40,557 nt of DNA, taken from assembly GCA_016282415.1 (NCBI GenBank), contig JAEEKO010000002.1:1-40557 (forward strand), written 5' to 3'. The notes below the pieces were generated by a model that had not been told where the DNA came from, ran no database searches, and worked only from the letters and a program-made list of their open reading frames with translations. The stretch's first letter is position 1. Each line of letters begins with the position of its first letter. The DNA is from Bacillales bacterium. GTDB taxonomy: Bacteria > Bacillota_I > Bacilli_A > RF39 > UBA660. Positions 33,710-40,557 of the stretch are shown one piece after another. The position numbers and the translations under genes were made by a program.

Positions 33710-33831
33710 AGCCACCTCAAACTTGCTACTTATTATATACAAAAATAACGAAATTACAAGTTTTTTTATTGCTTAATAAAAATTATTATTTTATAATAAA
33801 AAACAATTACATTTTACAAGGAGAAATTAAT

Positions 33832-34578
33832 ATGCGTTTAATTAAGATTGACGAAAAGAAAAACAAAGTCTATGTTTATAATGTTAAAGCTAACGTTGAA
33901 AAACTAGATGAATTAAGAGATGAAATTGCTATTAATTGTGGTATGATTACAAGCTTTTTTAAATATAGAAAGCATAATCCTGAAAAACCTATTGATAAAA
34001 GAGTAATTATCGATACTTATGAATATGAAGGCGAATTTGAAAGCATTGAAAATGGAATCCATGATAGCGGTGTACTATATACATGGAAAGGATTCCGATT
34101 TGCGTCTACAGATTTAACAAAGGATATTGCTGCTTTTACTGCTATGTATAAAAATAAACCAGTTCATTTTTATGAAGATGATATTGAATTATTATTAGCA
34201 CTAAGTGGAAATAAAGAATATCCAACAAAAGAAGAAATTGAAAAGAAAAATAATGATAAATTAAAAAATAGATATAAAACAATTCATGATACAATTGATT
34301 TTTACAATTTTGAAGAAAAAGAAGTGACTAAAGAAAAACTTATTGATTCAATGCTATCTAGTGATATAGATAATATGCATGAATTAATTAAAGCAAATAA
34401 AAAAGCTGATGAACTAAGAGTGTTAAAAGATCAAAACGATTATATTAAAGAAGTAGCTAAATTAATTAGTTTTAAATGTATTAATAGTATGGACTTAGAT
34501 ACATATAAAGCTGCAATTAATTTAAGTGAAGGTGGATATCGTCTTAAACCAAAGAATAATAAAAACAAGACTAGTTAG
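33832..34578 (+). CDS. Hypothetical cytoplasmic protein, 248 aa
   Basis: ATG 33832 behind AAGGAG (8-nt spacer). The upstream part of the track ORF is AT-rich leader sequence. Confidence 0.6.
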   Translation: MRLIKIDEKKNKVYVYNVKANVEKLDELRDEIAINCGMITSFFKYRKHNPEKPIDKRVIIDTYEYEGEFESIENGIHDSGVLYTWKGFRFASTDLTKDIAAFTAMYKNKPVHFYEDDIELLLALSGNKEYPTKEEIEKKNNDKLKNRYKTIHDTIDFYNFEEKEVTKEKLIDSMLSSDIDNMHELIKANKKADELRVLKDQNDYIKEVAKLISFKCINSMDLDTYKAAINLSEGGYRLKPKNNKNKTS

Positions 34579-34589
34579 TCTTGTTTTTT
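34561..34589. terminator. Bidirectional terminator containing both convergent stop codons
   Basis: AAAAACAAGACTA-GT-TAGTCTTGTTTTT. TAG (34576..34578, + gene) and TAA (34577..34575, - gene) overlap inside the stem apex. Confidence 0.75.
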
Positions 34590-36608
34590 ATATACTTCAT
34601 TAATTAATAATACAGTACATAAAATGATTATTAAAATACCACCAAATAATAAGTATAACCAGAATGGTACTTGACTCCATACATCTTTTAATGCATGTAT
34701 TAAGTTCAATACGCTAAATATAACACCAATTATAAAATATGAAGTTGTATATTTCTTTTGTAATAAACTATAAATTATTAATCCTAAACATGTAACCCCA
34801 GCTAAAATACTTAAATAGATTCCTGGTGAATAAATATCAAAGAAAACAATGAATGAAATAAAGATAATAAATAATACATGTTTTAATAAACTATTCTTCT
34901 TATCAATTGGGAAGATTGTCATAAATAAGATAAAGATTAAATATAAACTTACTAATAATGAAGAAATATCATCATTTAAATTAATTTGACGAATAAATAC
35001 CGAGAATGGCAATACAGAATAAATTGTTAAGAAATACTTATTAAATTTACTTTTAAATGGTAATAAGTAATTTATAAATGCTACTAATAAGCATAATAAT
35101 GATCCTATAGTTAAAGATAAATTAAATGGTTGAAGTCCAATGAAGATACTTGATAATAACAACATATAAATCATTAATGCAAAAACACTTAATACCTTAT
35201 AACCAACACTCTTATTGCCTTTAATAACAGTATAAATATATAATAAGTAACTAATTAATAATCCAACTAGTTGAATAATATTACTAGATACTGAAATACC
35301 ACATGAAACTAGGTTACCAAAAATATTAAAACAAATTAGAGTAATACATAGTGATAAATCAATTCCTTTAACCCCTTCATCTTTATCAATGAAATGCATT
35401 ATAAATAATACACCACTAAGAATAACTAAATAATTTCTTAAAAGAATATCGATTACATAATCATCTATTAAATTAATAACACTAGCACCAACAATTATAA
35501 TAACGATTGGTCGAATATAATCATAAAATACTGTTTTACTACCAATACTATTTAAAACATTTACTAATAATAAATTAATTGCTGCTAATAAAATGGTTAT
35601 GGCAGATGAACAAACATTAAAAATCACTAATATGAAGGCTGTAATTAATCCAATTATATTATTTGCTTTATAAATAACTTCATCATTCTTTAAATTAAAG
35701 ATTTTAACCATTAAATAATAGAATAAATAAACAAATAATGATAATCCAACTGCTAAACAATCATAACCATCTAGTGGTGATTGCAATAATGAACCCGTAG
35801 CAATTGCAACCATATAAGATGCAATTACATTTAATACTACAAATAATTTACGACGATCCTTAATCGTAAAGATTAAAGAACTAATTAATGATAATACTGA
35901 TGCTATTACCATTACAAATGAATAATCTAATATAATTATTTCAAAGAATAATAATAAATAGAATAAATAGTTAGCAATAACTGCTACTGCATAAATAAAG
36001 CCTTTTCTTGGTGCAAAAATATGAAGTAAGAAATAGAAAATACTCATATATAACATTGCATATTCAAAATCTAATTCAAAATGATTAAATATGAATGGTG
36101 CAATTAAGAAGAAAGCAATACTTCCAACCGTTTTAGCAAATCTTGATTTAAATAATAAATCATAAATAAACATAAAGATGGTTACTAAACCAAATATTGT
36201 TGCCATAACAATTGATGCACCTTCACCACCAAAGCTAAACCACTCACCAAATGTTTCAAAATAACCAATACCAACTAAGGTAAAAACCATAAATAAGAGT
36301 GATATTAATAAATAGCTCTTAGTAGTACTTCTGATTTTGATAAATAAAGCACTAACAATTGATAGTAACATAAATACTACACTAATTAATGCAAGTAATA
36401 ATACTTTAAAAGTATCACCAATAAATTCATAATTACTTGTTGCTAAGATAATACCAGCAACTAATACCATAAATACACCTAATTTTAAAAAGATATCAAT
36501 TCTTTTAATATCAGGACTTACTTCCTCTTTTTTTATTTCTGGTAATTTTGTTCCACAATCTTTACAAAACTTACCAAATCCTTCTTTACTACATTTAGGA
36601 CAAATCAT
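34575..36608 (-). CDS. Polytopic membrane protein (~18-20 TM) with an N-terminal zinc ribbon
   Basis: MICPKCSKEGFGKFCKDCGTKL (CxxC-x11-CxxC), followed by almost uninterrupted hydrophobic helices over 650 aa. Confidence 0.75.
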   Translation of the reverse strand: MICPKCSKEGFGKFCKDCGTKLPEIKKEEVSPDIKRIDIFLKLGVFMVLVAGIILATSNYEFIGDTFKVLLLALISVVFMLLSIVSALFIKIRSTTKSYLLISLLFMVFTLVGIGYFETFGEWFSFGGEGASIVMATIFGLVTIFMFIYDLLFKSRFAKTVGSIAFFLIAPFIFNHFELDFEYAMLYMSIFYFLLHIFAPRKGFIYAVAVIANYLFYLLLFFEIIILDYSFVMVIASVLSLISSLIFTIKDRRKLFVVLNVIASYMVAIATGSLLQSPLDGYDCLAVGLSLFVYLFYYLMVKIFNLKNDEVIYKANNIIGLITAFILVIFNVCSSAITILLAAINLLLVNVLNSIGSKTVFYDYIRPIVIIIVGASVINLIDDYVIDILLRNYLVILSGVLFIMHFIDKDEGVKGIDLSLCITLICFNIFGNLVSCGISVSSNIIQLVGLLISYLLYIYTVIKGNKSVGYKVLSVFALMIYMLLLSSIFIGLQPFNLSLTIGSLLCLLVAFINYLLPFKSKFNKYFLTIYSVLPFSVFIRQINLNDDISSLLVSLYLIFILFMTIFPIDKKNSLLKHVLFIIFISFIVFFDIYSPGIYLSILAGVTCLGLIIYSLLQKKYTTSYFIIGVIFSVLNLIHALKDVWSQVPFWLYLLFGGILIIILCTVLLINEVYKKQD

Positions 36609-36619
36609 ATCATTACCTC

Positions 36620-37009
36620 CTAATTAACTTTATATTCAATTTTTTCAGCTTCTTCAATATTTAAATCTGTTTTAGCATTAATCTTAAATTCATCATTCTT
36701 TTTTAAATTCCGATTAACAATATTATTTACTTTAATAATTTTATTATTATTTTTATCATAGAAAATTACATCAATGCTCTTAACGGTTTTAGTTTCGTCC
36801 GCTGTAACGGTTGCGGTAAAATCGTAGAATTTACCTTCTTTTTTTATTTCAACATCAGTAATTATTAAACCATCAACAAACGTTTTACCACGATTCATAT
36901 AATTATGAACCCCAATTAGTATAATAAATCCTGCTAACAGCACTGCTAGTATAATCATAACGATTGTTAATATTTTATTACGTCCTGAATTTATTTTTTT
37001 GTTTTTCAT
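36620..37009 (-). CDS. Single-pass membrane protein with a small beta-rich ectodomain (paralog of 37096..37500)
   Basis: TM ILTIVMIILAVLLAGFIILIGV, then ...ITDVEIKKEG..FTATVTAD...IDVIFYDKNNNKI...L.KNDEFKI.AKTD. 11-nt gap with an AGGAGG RBS to the downstream 677-aa gene. Confidence 0.65.
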   Translation of the reverse strand: MKNKKINSGRNKILTIVMIILAVLLAGFIILIGVHNYMNRGKTFVDGLIITDVEIKKEGKFYDFTATVTADETKTVKSIDVIFYDKNNNKIIKVNNIVNRNLKKNDEFKINAKTDLNIEEAEKIEYKVN

Positions 37010-37067
37010 CTATTATCACCTACTATAATTATACTATTTTTTAAATAATAAGCAATAATCTTTGACA

Positions 37068-37097
37068 ATAAAAAAATTGCAATTTCTTGCAATTTTT
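37068..37097 (-). terminator. Terminator after the 134-aa gene
   Basis: 11-bp stem AAAAATTGCAA / TTGCAATTTTT with loop TTTC. The stop 37096..37098 lies at the stem edge. Confidence 0.65.
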
Positions 37098-37500
37098 ATT
37101 TTGTTAGTTCATAGGTAATATTATGCATATCTGAAATATCTTCATCTGTACTTGCTTTAATACTTATTGAATCATTTGGTATTACATTTCGACCAACATA
37201 ACCAATAAGTGTTACTATAACTTTATTATTTTTATCTAAAATATTTAATTTAATACCATCGATTGTTTCACTTTCTTTAACGGTTAATGTTCCAGTGTAA
37301 GTAGTTACCCCTTCCTCCGTTAAAACATGAATATCGCTGATAGTTATATTATCTGTAACACTGACATCATCAAATTTTGGATCTCCCATTCCAAGAATAG
37401 AATAAGCAATAAATGCCGCTAATGCAATCATTAAGACGCCAATGCCAATAACCCATTTACGATTTTCTTCACTTTTTATAATCGACATAAATTTTCTCAT
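37096..37500 (-). CDS. Single-pass membrane protein with a small beta-rich ectodomain, translationally coupled to the giant Gly-rich gene
   Basis: TM WVIGIGVLMIALAAFIAYSILG, then ...ISDIHVLTEEG..YTGTLTVKE...IKLNILDKNNKVI...VIPNDSISIKASTD. Its ATG overlaps the upstream TGA (ATGA at 37497..37500). Confidence 0.65.
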   Translation of the reverse strand: MRKFMSIIKSEENRKWVIGIGVLMIALAAFIAYSILGMGDPKFDDVSVTDNITISDIHVLTEEGVTTYTGTLTVKESETIDGIKLNILDKNNKVIVTLIGYVGRNVIPNDSISIKASTDEDISDMHNITYELTK

Positions 37501-40500
37501 GAGTTTTCCCCACTTACTTCTTTAGATATTTCTTCAATAATTTGTATTATTTTACTAACACTATTTTTCTTACCTAAACCATTTTCAATATCGCATGTTA
37601 TTTCATATTCACCAATTTCTAATTCATTGATATTTGAAATAACATCATCACCATTCTTACAACTAAATGTTACTCCTGATTTAGTAGATGTATATCCCGT
37701 AGGTAGTGTTATATCACTACCTACAGTTATTTCATCATCTAACTCAAGTTCAATACTTGGAGTTTCTCGATCAATACGATTAACCGTAAATGAACTTGTT
37801 GATACGACATTATTATTTTCGTCTAATGAACGAGCAAGAATAGTTACGTTTTCTTCAACTGTAATTTCACCTTGATATTCAAACCAAGTTTCACCTAAAT
37901 CTAAACTATACTCACTAGTATATCCTTTTGGATAACTAATATTAATTTTTTTAGATTCTGCATAACCAGTATTATCAATTGTAATATTTGGAGTTTCAAC
38001 GATAATCTTAGGTGCTGACTTAGGTGAAGATTTACCACCACGTCTTAATTCGAGTTCAATAGTAGTAAATGATACTGTACCAGCTCCTCCGTTACCACGG
38101 TTATTAGTTGCTGATCCTCCAACAACTGAAGTTGTACCTTCACTAGTAATAGAATTACTAAATACGTTAATTGATCCACCACCAGATGATCCCGGAGTAC
38201 CATAGCCTTTATGATCATATGCTGATGTACCATTAGCTTGCAATGTTCCAGTATTATTAAATTCACTAGCATAAATAACCAATAATCCACCTGTACCATT
38301 GCTTCCATCTGGAATACCAGAACTTAAATTTTTAGATTGACCACCTGGGTTACCAACACCACCAGAGTAGCCATCACTTCTACCACCAGAACCACCATAT
38401 TGGTTACCACTTGTTGCAATTGATTCATAGGCTGATCCACCACCAGTTCCTCCTGAATAACTTGTACCAGCTCCTCCATCTCCAGGCGTTACTGAATATG
38501 ATCCACCACCAGATCCACCACCACCTGTAGCACGACTAGAAACTGTAGAGCCAGCAGAACCAGGATTACCACTTTTATCACCAGAAGATTTCTTAGAAAC
38601 TCCTCCAGCTCCGCCTACAGCAGGAACTACTTCAAATGTATCATCACTATTTTTCCATAGATATACATTATCTCCATAAGCATATGCACCATGCGAATTA
38701 TCAATTGTTCCGGTATTATTTAATGTACCAGTAACAAATAGAACAAATCCTTTTGGTCCACCATATCGGTTATAGAATGGTTCTATCTTGGCATTATTTG
38801 TTAAATTTCCATTTACTTTAACAATTACCGTATTGGTAGCCATACGATCGCTGCCTAAACCATTACCAACGTCATTTTCATCACCAAACTTAGTATTAGT
38901 AGTAATAGTTTGATCTCCCTCTAATACATATAGGTGAACTGGGTAAGTAACCGTTTCACTATCACCTTCAACAACAAAATCATAATATCCATCGTTTAAA
39001 CTAGGGTCATTTAATATTTCCAAAATACTGTCCCCTGATTTTGATGTTCTTTCAAAAGTTCTTTCGGCAATTGGTAATTCATCAAATGATGCACTACCAG
39101 TACCGCCAAGACTACGCTTATTAGTTGCGGATCCACCGGCTACATTTACGTTTCCTTCTTTAATTAGTGTTTTAGCAAATACATTGATGGAACCACCACC
39201 AGAAGAACCTCCAGTACCATAACTATTATGTTCATATGCGGCAGTACCAGTTGCTTTTAATAAACCATTACTTTCAAATTTATCCGCATAAATCATTAAT
39301 AATCCACCAGTACCACTAACAATATGTCCATAATCAGTTTGTGGATTTACATACTCTCCACCTGGGTTACCAACACCACTACCTAAACCAGTACCGGTTC
39401 CACCCTGGCCACCATAATTGCTACCAGATGTTGTGGTCGCTTGCCATGCAGATCCTCCTCCAGTTCCACCGGAATAAGAGGTTGCAGATCCACCATCACC
39501 AGGTTTTGCGGAAGATGATCCACCACCTGATGCTCCACCACCTAGCGCACGACTTGATATTGTTGATCCATCCTTACCAGCTACTTGATATTTATCACCA
39601 GAAGTTTTCCTAGAAATTCCTCCAGCTCCACCTACAGCAGGAACAGTAGCAAATGTACCATTATCATATTTATAAATATATACATTATCACCATATGCAT
39701 ACGCACCATGAGAATTATCTATAGTACCATCATTAGTAAGTTTACCAGTTACATAAACCATAAATCCTTTTGGCCCACCATATTGTTCATGATATACAGG
39801 TCCCACTGTAACTCCTGATTTAATTTTTAAATCACCATTAAATTTGACTATGACCATATTAGTAGCCATTTTATCTTCAGTTGTACCTGACGCACAATCA
39901 GATAAAGATCCAAATTGGATATCGCTTTTAATTGATTGATTACCATTAATAACAATTAAATGCACTGGATATGTAACAGTTTCATTATCACCATTAACAA
40001 TGAAATTATAGTATCCTGTATTTAAGTTACTATCATCTAAAATATCGATAATACTATCACCAGTTTTATTAATTTTCTCAGTTGAAACAACATGATTATC
40101 ATCATATGAATCTATTTCTTCTTGAATAATACTAGTAAAATCATAATATTGACCATCAATTATTTTACCAATATTTACAGTTCCAAGACCTCCATTACCA
40201 CCTCTACTGGTATTAGATGTCGTTTTTAGTGTTCCACCTGCAACTGATATATCACCTTTTAAATCATTATATACACTCAAGTATGAAACACTAGGTGAAA
40301 TCAAATTAATAGCATTATTTGCAAAGATATTAACGGATCCACCACCAGAACCACCACCAATGTAAGTAGCAGAAGCGGCTTCATGACCTTTAGCAAGAAT
40401 TGTCCCATTATTTTCATATTCATCAGAATAAATAATAAGTAATCCACCAGTACCTCCAGCAGGGTTACCGGCTCCTGCTCCAGCACCAGTTCCATAACCA

Positions 40501-40557
40501 GTTCCACCAGCACCTCCATTACTTGGTATATTTGTAAATGAAGTACTATTACGAATA
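37497..40557 (-). CDS. Very large glycine-rich modular extracellular protein (5' end beyond the window; at least 1019 codons visible)
   Basis: The track ORF start (TTG 40304) is internal. The same frame stays open to 40557 (...NGGAGGTGYGTGAGAGAGNPAGGTGGLLIIYSDEY...GGGSGGGSVNIFANNAIN-LISPS...). Two full ~340-360-aa modules plus a partial third, then a non-Gly C-terminal region. Confidence 0.8.
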   Translation of the reverse strand, partial: IRNSTSFTNIPSNGGAGGTGYGTGAGAGAGNPAGGTGGLLIIYSDEYENNGTILAKGHEAASATYIGGGSGGGSVNIFANNAINLISPSVSYLSVYNDLKGDISVAGGTLKTTSNTSRGGNGGLGTVNIGKIIDGQYYDFTSIIQEEIDSYDDNHVVSTEKINKTGDSIIDILDDSNLNTGYYNFIVNGDNETVTYPVHLIVINGNQSIKSDIQFGSLSDCASGTTEDKMATNMVIVKFNGDLKIKSGVTVGPVYHEQYGGPKGFMVYVTGKLTNDGTIDNSHGAYAYGDNVYIYKYDNGTFATVPAVGGAGGISRKTSGDKYQVAGKDGSTISSRALGGGASGGGSSSAKPGDGGSATSYSGGTGGGSAWQATTTSGSNYGGQGGTGTGLGSGVGNPGGEYVNPQTDYGHIVSGTGGLLMIYADKFESNGLLKATGTAAYEHNSYGTGGSSGGGSINVFAKTLIKEGNVNVAGGSATNKRSLGGTGSASFDELPIAERTFERTSKSGDSILEILNDPSLNDGYYDFVVEGDSETVTYPVHLYVLEGDQTITTNTKFGDENDVGNGLGSDRMATNTVIVKVNGNLTNNAKIEPFYNRYGGPKGFVLFVTGTLNNTGTIDNSHGAYAYGDNVYLWKNSDDTFEVVPAVGGAGGVSKKSSGDKSGNPGSAGSTVSSRATGGGGSGGGSYSVTPGDGGAGTSYSGGTGGGSAYESIATSGNQYGGSGGRSDGYSGGVGNPGGQSKNLSSGIPDGSNGTGGLLVIYASEFNNTGTLQANGTSAYDHKGYGTPGSSGGGSINVFSNSITSEGTTSVVGGSATNNRGNGGAGTVSFTTIELELRRGGKSSPKSAPKIIVETPNITIDNTGYAESKKINISYPKGYTSEYSLDLGETWFEYQGEITVEENVTILARSLDENNNVVSTSSFTVNRIDRETPSIELELDDEITVGSDITLPTGYTSTKSGVTFSCKNGDDVISNINELEIGEYEITCDIENGLGKKNSVSKIIQIIEEISKEVSGENS
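38064..39083 (-). repeat. Gly-rich module B (residues ~408-747 of the track ORF)
   Basis: Shares ordered blocks with module A: GDSILEILND, ETVTYPVHL, GGPKGF, GTIDNSHGAYAYGDNVY, VPAVGGAGG, PGDGG..TSYSGGTGGGSA, GVGNPGG, GTGGLLVIYA, GSSGGGSINVF, GGSATN. Confidence 0.8.
39084..40166 (-). repeat. Gly-rich module A (residues ~47-407)
   Basis: Same block order as module B. Repeat offset 339-342 aa. Confidence 0.8.
40167..40557 (-). repeat. Gly-rich module 0 (C-terminal part only, truncated by the window edge)
   Basis: GNPAGGTGGLLIIYSDEY...GGGSGGGSVNIF...GGNGGLGTVNIG aligns with the ends of modules A and B. Confidence 0.7.

Follow-up and report, generated by a model that had tools for sequence, protein, structure and literature searches.

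We analysed four neighbouring genes in a 40,557-nucleotide (nt) window of a Bacillales bacterium, the window being the whole stretch of DNA under study, contig JAEEKO010000002.1, which is the complete contig C80 of assembly G000 (0.9 Mb, 85% complete). All four open reading frames (ORFs) lie on the minus strand: the C-terminal 1019 amino acids (aa) of a giant glycine-rich (Gly-rich) surface protein (37497..40557, cut off where the contig ends), a 134-aa protein with an N-terminal transmembrane (TM) helix and a predicted FxLYD-like beta-sandwich ectodomain (37096..37500), a 129-aa paralog of the same predicted build (36620..37009), and a 677-aa polytopic membrane protein with an N-terminal zinc ribbon and about 24 predicted TM helices (34575..36608). 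The original prediction, which was made from the window, regarded the three membrane proteins as travelling together with the giant. Public sequence matches to the window were rumen or gut metagenome-assembled genomes (MAGs) carrying the label "Bacilli bacterium"; uncultured Bacilli of this kind, with genomes of about 1 Mb, occur in large numbers in rumen and gut samples, and the construction of their surface is poorly understood. Homologs were searched in 41 related genomes with single sequences and with profiles, and among the loci compared, L001 carries the locus of another strain, G001, L002-L004 and L041 are sister species, and L039 and L040 carry orthologs of the 134-aa gene. These comparisons indicated that the locus very probably consists of two independent operons, which have only the paralogous small gene in common.

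Gene junctions, transcription units and the chromosomal slot

The giant ORF ends with GENS-TGA, its TGA lying at 37497-37499 and the ATG of the 134-aa gene at 37500-37498, so the two codons overlap as ATGA (37497-37500), just as the original prediction had described. From this overlap, the 134-aa protein is predicted to be translated by coupling to the giant stop codon. The unit is closed by an intrinsic terminator on the same strand (37067..37097), in which an A/U-rich stem of 11 bp carries a GAAA loop and runs into a U-tract; the hairpin AAAAATTGCAA-GAAA-TTGCAATTTTT (37097-37072) folded with -12.3 kcal/mol (z = -4.1), and none of 200 shuffled sequences equalled it. The consensus terminator scan overlooked this hairpin because its stem holds just two G-C pairs. 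The same hairpin follows the 70%-identical 134-aa ortholog in L039, with a compensatory change from A-U to G-C, and together with the folding result this upheld the terminator that had been placed at 37068..37097.

A second unit starts directly past this terminator, also as had been claimed. Its promoter and leader block on the minus strand (37007..37061) contains TTGCTT (37055-37050), a 16-nt spacer and TATAAT (37033-37028), which are followed by the ribosome-binding site AGGTGA (37021-37016) and the ATG of the 129-aa gene at 37009. DNA alignment upstream of the 129-aa gene showed that the block 37061-37007 was almost invariant in the window, L001, L041 and G001, so the 129+677 unit owns a conserved promoter, and the homology to genomes without the giant starts exactly at 37061. 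The 129-aa ORF stops with TAG (36620-36622), 11 nt from the ATG of the 677-aa gene at 36608, and an AGGAGG overlaps that stop, which agrees with the junction described earlier.

Comparison of the loci indicated that the two units could be separated. In the window and L001, all four genes were adjacent on one strand. In G001 and L002-L004 (54-56% identity of the 677-aa protein) and in L041 (81%), the pair of a 129/130-aa and a 675/677-aa gene was retained, and the downstream order was unchanged (121-aa gene, lipoprotein, thioredoxin-like, DUF3419, uvrB, rplI and dnaB genes); upstream of the pair there were MBOAT and AlgX-like genes on the opposite strand, and the giant and the 134-aa gene were not present at this locus. 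Within this genus, the 129-aa gene was always found immediately upstream of the 675-677-aa gene. In L039/L040, the giant C-terminus and the 134-aa ortholog adjoined rpmB, not a 129+677 pair. The view that these genes travel with the giant was therefore supported for the 134-aa gene, whose orthologs always stood behind a giant C-terminus, but not for the 129-aa and 677-aa genes, which were not conserved beside giant homologs and were kept without the giant and the 134-aa gene in sister species (81% and 54%).

The giant+134 unit seems to occupy an exchangeable position. Contig C23 of G000 terminates with tilS, ftsH, a helix-turn-helix (HTH) gene and the N-terminus of the giant, whose ORF runs off the contig, and this arrangement (C23:4483-7579) is the same slot as in G001:C7 (L037:6499-9032). 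The slot is bounded by an HTH_3/MqsA-like gene on one side and by the 129-aa gene on the other, and in G001 and L041 it is filled by the MBOAT and AlgX-like O-acyltransferase pair. We searched G000 for this pair and found no copy. Because the flanks are shared and G000 lacks the MBOAT/AlgX-like pair, the giant+134 and MBOAT cassettes were taken as alternative fillings of one slot. No integrase or phage genes were seen in the giant+134 flanks that were examined, and a mobile-element or phage origin was searched for no further.

The small proteins and the giant surface protein

The 134-aa and 129-aa proteins shared 30% identity over 125 aa (BLASTP, E 2e-10), and tblastn connected the small paralogs at E 4e-10 and 8e-9, so the paralogy and the common layout that had been proposed for them were borne out. 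The residue pattern given for the two proteins needed two corrections: for the 134-aa protein it was one residue off at "EG....(F/Y)T", and its part "DKNN(K/N)(I/V)I" did not fit the 129-aa protein, whose sequence is DKNNNKI. There is also a third small paralog of 131 aa elsewhere in G000 (C33:2798-3190, minus strand), with a counterpart in G001 (C7:161356-161748, L034).

Family assignment was obtained through this third paralog, which scored 24.7 bits against FxLYD_dom (NF038353) and passed the curated cut-off of 23, while the 134-aa protein scored 15.3 bits (E 0.013), under the cut-off, and the 129-aa protein had no match to this NCBIfam model. A Pfam scan of the 134-aa and 129-aa proteins gave nothing, and the FxLYD_dom model matched 6 of the 21 members of the small-protein family. 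By transitive homology, the small proteins are thus probably divergent members of the FxLYD family. They resemble FxLYD proteins (NF038353) in having a membrane or lipid anchor at the N-terminus, followed by a beta-sandwich ectodomain of about 70-90 aa, and in the motif strand F/I-x-(Y/L)-D-K (FYDKNN and ILDKNN). FxLYD proteins usually bear a zinc ribbon themselves, but here the cytoplasmic zinc ribbon sits on the neighbouring 677-aa protein. A literature search on FxLYD found nothing relevant.

AlphaFold2 (AF2) with a 21-sequence alignment predicted a helix at residues 11-36 and then a sandwich of six or seven strands, with a predicted local distance difference test (pLDDT) score of about 80 over the ectodomain, so that the small all-beta ectodomain behind a membrane anchor, which is typical of FxLYD proteins, is present in the model. 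Foldseek of the ectodomain returned only generic immunoglobulin-like (Ig-like) sandwiches, the best being DUF1425 (3o0l, E 4e-3). The nearest structures were DUF1425/YcfL-type and ApaG/IrmA-type sandwiches (3o0l, 1xvs and 5ek5), but with E values of about 4e-3 to 3e-2, TM-scores of 0.35-0.5 and 10-20% identity this resemblance of fold speaks neither for a function nor for membership of these families. A sequence search of the PDB with the small-protein profile gave no match. Pfam and NCBIfam scans of the 134-, 129- and 677-aa proteins found no match to sortase/LPXTG or any other known secretion pathway, in agreement with what had been noticed before.

Between the window and L001, the synonymous and nonsynonymous codon differences were 2 and 9 for the 134-aa gene, 4 and 6 for the 129-aa gene, 24 and 9 for the 677-aa gene, and 36 and 1 for uvrB; these ratios, although the counts are small, are consistent with exposed, fast-evolving small proteins.

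The giant is also a variable protein. Its homolog in strain L001 has 3454 aa, and the giant carries Ig-like domains of the CHB_HEX_C/Fn3 type. The N-terminus, which was assigned to the separate contig C23, is a signal-anchor (MANNKRKK...YILLVLLLSLFIPSFY) with a K-rich tail and a hydrophobic segment of 16 residues, which means that the giant is not anchor-less as had been supposed. Since the giant has its own N-terminal anchor, the small proteins are unneeded as its anchor, and the earlier proposal of this role is disfavoured. Alignment of the window with L001 (L001:1-8575) showed 97.4% identity from 38033 downward and only 65-74% nucleotide identity in the Gly-rich modules. The final 178 aa of the giant (37500-38033) are Ig-like and kept between the strains, and the modules upstream of 38033 are hypervariable. 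The boundary is sharp and lies 178 aa before the giant stop; the conserved Ig-like end of the giant makes up a single block with the 134-aa gene. The identity step at 38033 may reflect shuffling of modules or recombination within the surface protein.

The 677-aa protein and its family

The zinc ribbon of the 677-aa protein reads C3xxC6-x8-C15xxC18 and was invariant in all six close homologs; the two CxxC knuckles of the original prediction are present, but their spacing is x8, not x11. The N-terminal segment has ten K/R residues and was placed on the cytoplasmic side of TM1. AF2 confidence over the ribbon was low (about 50), and Pfam zinc-ribbon models did not match this N-terminus. The AF2 model of the whole protein (pLDDT 77, predicted TM-score (pTM) 0.64) had about 24 helices and hydropathy gave 22-25, with very short loops, which raised the count from the 18-20 helices stated before to about 22-24 and agreed with the description that there are almost no loops. 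Foldseek of this model against the PDB gave no fold match and returned generic helical repeats with TM-scores of at most 0.3. The PDB search with the polytopic profile returned a sphingomyelin synthase-related protein at E 0.011, which is at chance level and was rejected as a relative.

Among the 41 genomes, close homologs of the 677-aa protein were restricted to this genus (G000 and G001), but the wider family is large. A profile search of 1.84 billion representatives (clusters at 50% identity) found 1452 proteins at E <= 1e-3, of which 561 were at E <= 1e-30, and most family proteins had 720-770 aa and were aligned over the full length. The named records came from MAGs of uncultured Bacilli, "Mollicutes" or Erysipelotrichaceae, with two exceptions labelled Clostridia or Muribaculaceae. 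The 677-aa protein aligned with positions 95-738 of the profile of the approximately 730-aa family (E 6e-210), and family motifs were IDILLKLGV...FATTxW and IPFWLYLL..G; in place of the zinc ribbon of this genus, the approximately 730-aa relatives have two additional helices at the N-terminus. These alignments put the 677-aa protein in an unnamed family of approximately 730-aa polytopic proteins of uncultured gut and rumen Bacilli. With more than 1400 clusters and neither a Pfam model nor a structural relative, this family is worth registering.

In other uncultured Bacilli (L048, L054, L055, L059, L061 and L063-L065), the approximately 730-aa homolog was usually found directly downstream of a gene for a RelA/SpoT-type (p)ppGpp synthetase/hydrolase, and in L006 it was located upstream of radC-mreC.

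Comparison with models of known domains, a check of the kind that had been suggested, gave no clean assignment of the 677-aa protein to a characterised family. Its match to SCO7613_CTERM (NF047321) was 16 bits over residues 600-664 with a cut-off of 45, the match to 7TMR-DISM was sub-threshold (E 0.011), and there was no match to DUF2157 (PF09925, gathering threshold 32.4 bits). Among 21 relatives, SCO7613_CTERM matched 15 in the last helices (IPFWLYLL; best E 4.7e-5) and DUF2157 matched four in the first conserved helices (IDILLKLGV...FATTxW; best E 1.3e-5), none of them at the cut-off. Nine longer members of about 1000 aa gave two DUF2157 matches of only about 18 bits, and no informative fused domains were found when these members were scanned. 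So there is a likeness to DUF2157 and to the SCO7613 C-terminal domain, in the form of weak matches that recur in relatives under the threshold, but these matches span less than 20% of the protein. DUF2157 has been placed in the LiaI-LiaF-TM group (PMC11237479). We also considered repeated four-TM units of the LiaI/LiaF type and rejected them, as hhalign of pieces of the alignment gave a probability of at most 30% and no internal repeat. In the literature search, DUF2157 was mentioned only in a phage shock protein (PSP) paper and SCO7613 only in a polyhydroxyalkanoate (PHA) study.

Proposed roles of the two protein pairs

From gene neighbourhood, we infer a physical interaction within each pair and the following roles. 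In the first unit, the N-anchored hypervariable giant and the 134-aa protein would be made in step through translational coupling, and the 134-aa protein would be committed to the giant as a partner in trans, with the conserved Ig-like end at the giant C-terminus as its target. It may be seen as a C-terminal module which is supplied as a separate membrane-tethered polypeptide, and at the cell surface it might dock or cap the distal end of the giant or make this end more stable, without being the sole anchor of the giant. The second unit has a promoter and a terminator to itself, and its two products, the 129-aa protein and the 677-aa protein with its near lack of loops, would assemble into a complex in the membrane. 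The 129-aa protein would contribute the one sizeable domain outside the cell, and the zinc ribbon the one domain in the cytoplasm. These specific partner roles of the 134-aa and 129-aa proteins are tentative, and we give them somewhat less than an even chance; the statement that combines the two-unit architecture with these roles, taken as worded, appears moderately probable.

The proposal was drawn from the pairing of large and small proteins in several genomes. L039/L040 have a TAATG overlap between the 70%-identical 134-aa ortholog and a giant C-terminus of 80% identity. In G020 (genus g19), a Gly-rich giant of 2296 aa, with GGAGG within its last codons, is followed after 7 nt by the gene of a 136-aa protein, which combines a TM helix with a beta-sandwich, and on G020:C4 a 949-aa N-anchored protein stands between two members of the small family. 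In G008 (genus g7), the gene that lies 15 nt behind that of a large Ig-like protein encodes a 136-aa family member which is a lipoprotein (lipobox LATGC). In G012, two members in tandem stand before a 1526-aa Gly-rich protein, in G011 one member precedes a large pilin-like protein, and in G001 the counterpart of the third paralog precedes a large BspA-type leucine-rich-repeat surface protein. Finally, G008:C11 (L067:3140-6139) encodes a 999-aa N-anchored protein, in which the small-protein domain is fused to the C-terminus (i-E 9e-11), and the order within the fusion, large part and then FxLYD-like domain, is the gene order found elsewhere. In the domain tree (maximum likelihood, about 100 columns, long branches and weak resolution), this fused domain grouped as sister with the free-standing lipoprotein from its own genome, a hint that fused and free forms have been exchanged.

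Large surface proteins near some members (L070:1508-6088, which is G012:C4, and the ORF upstream in L058) start with putative SipW/TasA-like signal peptides, for example ...GASFAYFSASLTG.

Several observations weigh against the proposed partnerships. The third paralog of G000 (C33) stands alone, other family members adjoin housekeeping genes such as dusB, priA and a tRNA synthetase gene, and the domain tree united the three paralogs of this genus, not the giant-linked proteins across genera, so the pairing may have arisen more than once and been re-established by duplication instead of being simply inherited. For the second unit, an FxLYD-like neighbour was seen only in G001, of the same genus, among 26 distant polytopic homologs, so the 129/677 partnership is young and could be incidental.

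These points are close to the alternative that survives best, in which FxLYD-like proteins are generic and fast-evolving, and stand beside surface genes by chance or by shared regulation without any partnership. The members next to dusB, priA and tRNA synthetase genes fit this explanation, and so does a tree that suggests independent recruitment. But four independent lineages have kept either an overlap of stop and start codons behind the large gene or a spacing no wider than 15 nt, the fusion in the 999-aa surface protein repeats the order of the separate genes, and of 17 matches to the small-protein family across 9 genomes, about 9-10 neighbour a large N-anchored protein or form part of one (a raw count), which made us regard adjacency without function as unlikely, though still deserving some weight.

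A further alternative concerns only the second unit, namely that the 677-aa protein is a stand-alone enzyme or transporter, such as a lipid or polymer synthase, a flippase or a transferase of the GT-C type, with which the 129-aa gene is merely co-transcribed. The recurrent SCO7613 C-terminal matches in 15 of 21 relatives would speak for it, as would the reduced PHA accumulation after SCO7613 deletion in Streptomyces coelicolor (PMC8313934) and the weak profile match to the sphingomyelin synthase-related protein. However, these matches are far under the thresholds, and that to SCO7613 (16 against 45 bits) covers only the last 65 residues or so; the model has no fold match in the PDB, and loops are nearly absent. 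In addition, over 65 family members the conserved positions were only Gly, Pro and aromatic residues (G44 and G657 invariant; W644, P648 and Y652 nearly so), and no acidic, His or Ser position was conserved. Because conserved residues of a catalytic or transport type are lacking, we read the 677-aa protein as a putative structural or sensing platform of the envelope, and the enzyme or transporter explanation as quite improbable.

The least probable reading is that all four genes form one system, with the small proteins as anchors or chaperones of the giant and the 677-aa protein as an export or assembly platform: it has in its favour the adjacency on one strand in the window and L001 and the paralogy of both small proteins, but it is largely refuted by the co-occurrence data, since the 129+677 pair occurs without the giant in G001, L002-L004 and L041, giant+134 pairs occur without an adjoining 129+677 pair in L039/L040, G020 and G008, G020, G008 and G012 own giant-like proteins and have no 677-aa homolog by profile search, a terminator and a conserved promoter separate both units, and the giant bears its own N-terminal anchor.

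The two-pair reading could perhaps be extended beyond this locus. FxLYD small proteins in reduced-genome gut and rumen Bacilli might be a dedicated accessory class which is encoded right next to large, variable, N-anchored surface proteins, or fused to their C-terminus, and which docks or caps them in trans, and in this genus one duplicate might have been recruited to the zinc-ribbon protein of about 24 helices to form a new envelope complex; we consider this generalisation doubtful at present. If FxLYD small proteins truly partner giant variable surface proteins, this would be the first functional context for the FxLYD domain, and it would help to predict the large proteins that are displayed. 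In monoderm bacteria, pairs of an accessory protein and a large adhesin are known, such as TapA with TasA fibres, in which a small membrane-associated protein is encoded beside the surface polymer that it serves. The arrangement of the giant and the 134-aa gene would be analogous to such pairs in having a small membrane-associated gene product encoded next to a large surface protein, but there is no sequence or fold relationship, and no signal-peptidase or sortase gene is linked here.

Downstream, the 129+677 unit is closed by a terminator hairpin (34561..34588, minus strand; -12.8 kcal/mol, z -5.2), which it has in common with a convergent 269-aa gene on the plus strand (33769-34578). The product of this gene had no family match, and the gene was variable between genomes, with 244 aa in L001 and a 68-aa ORF in G001.

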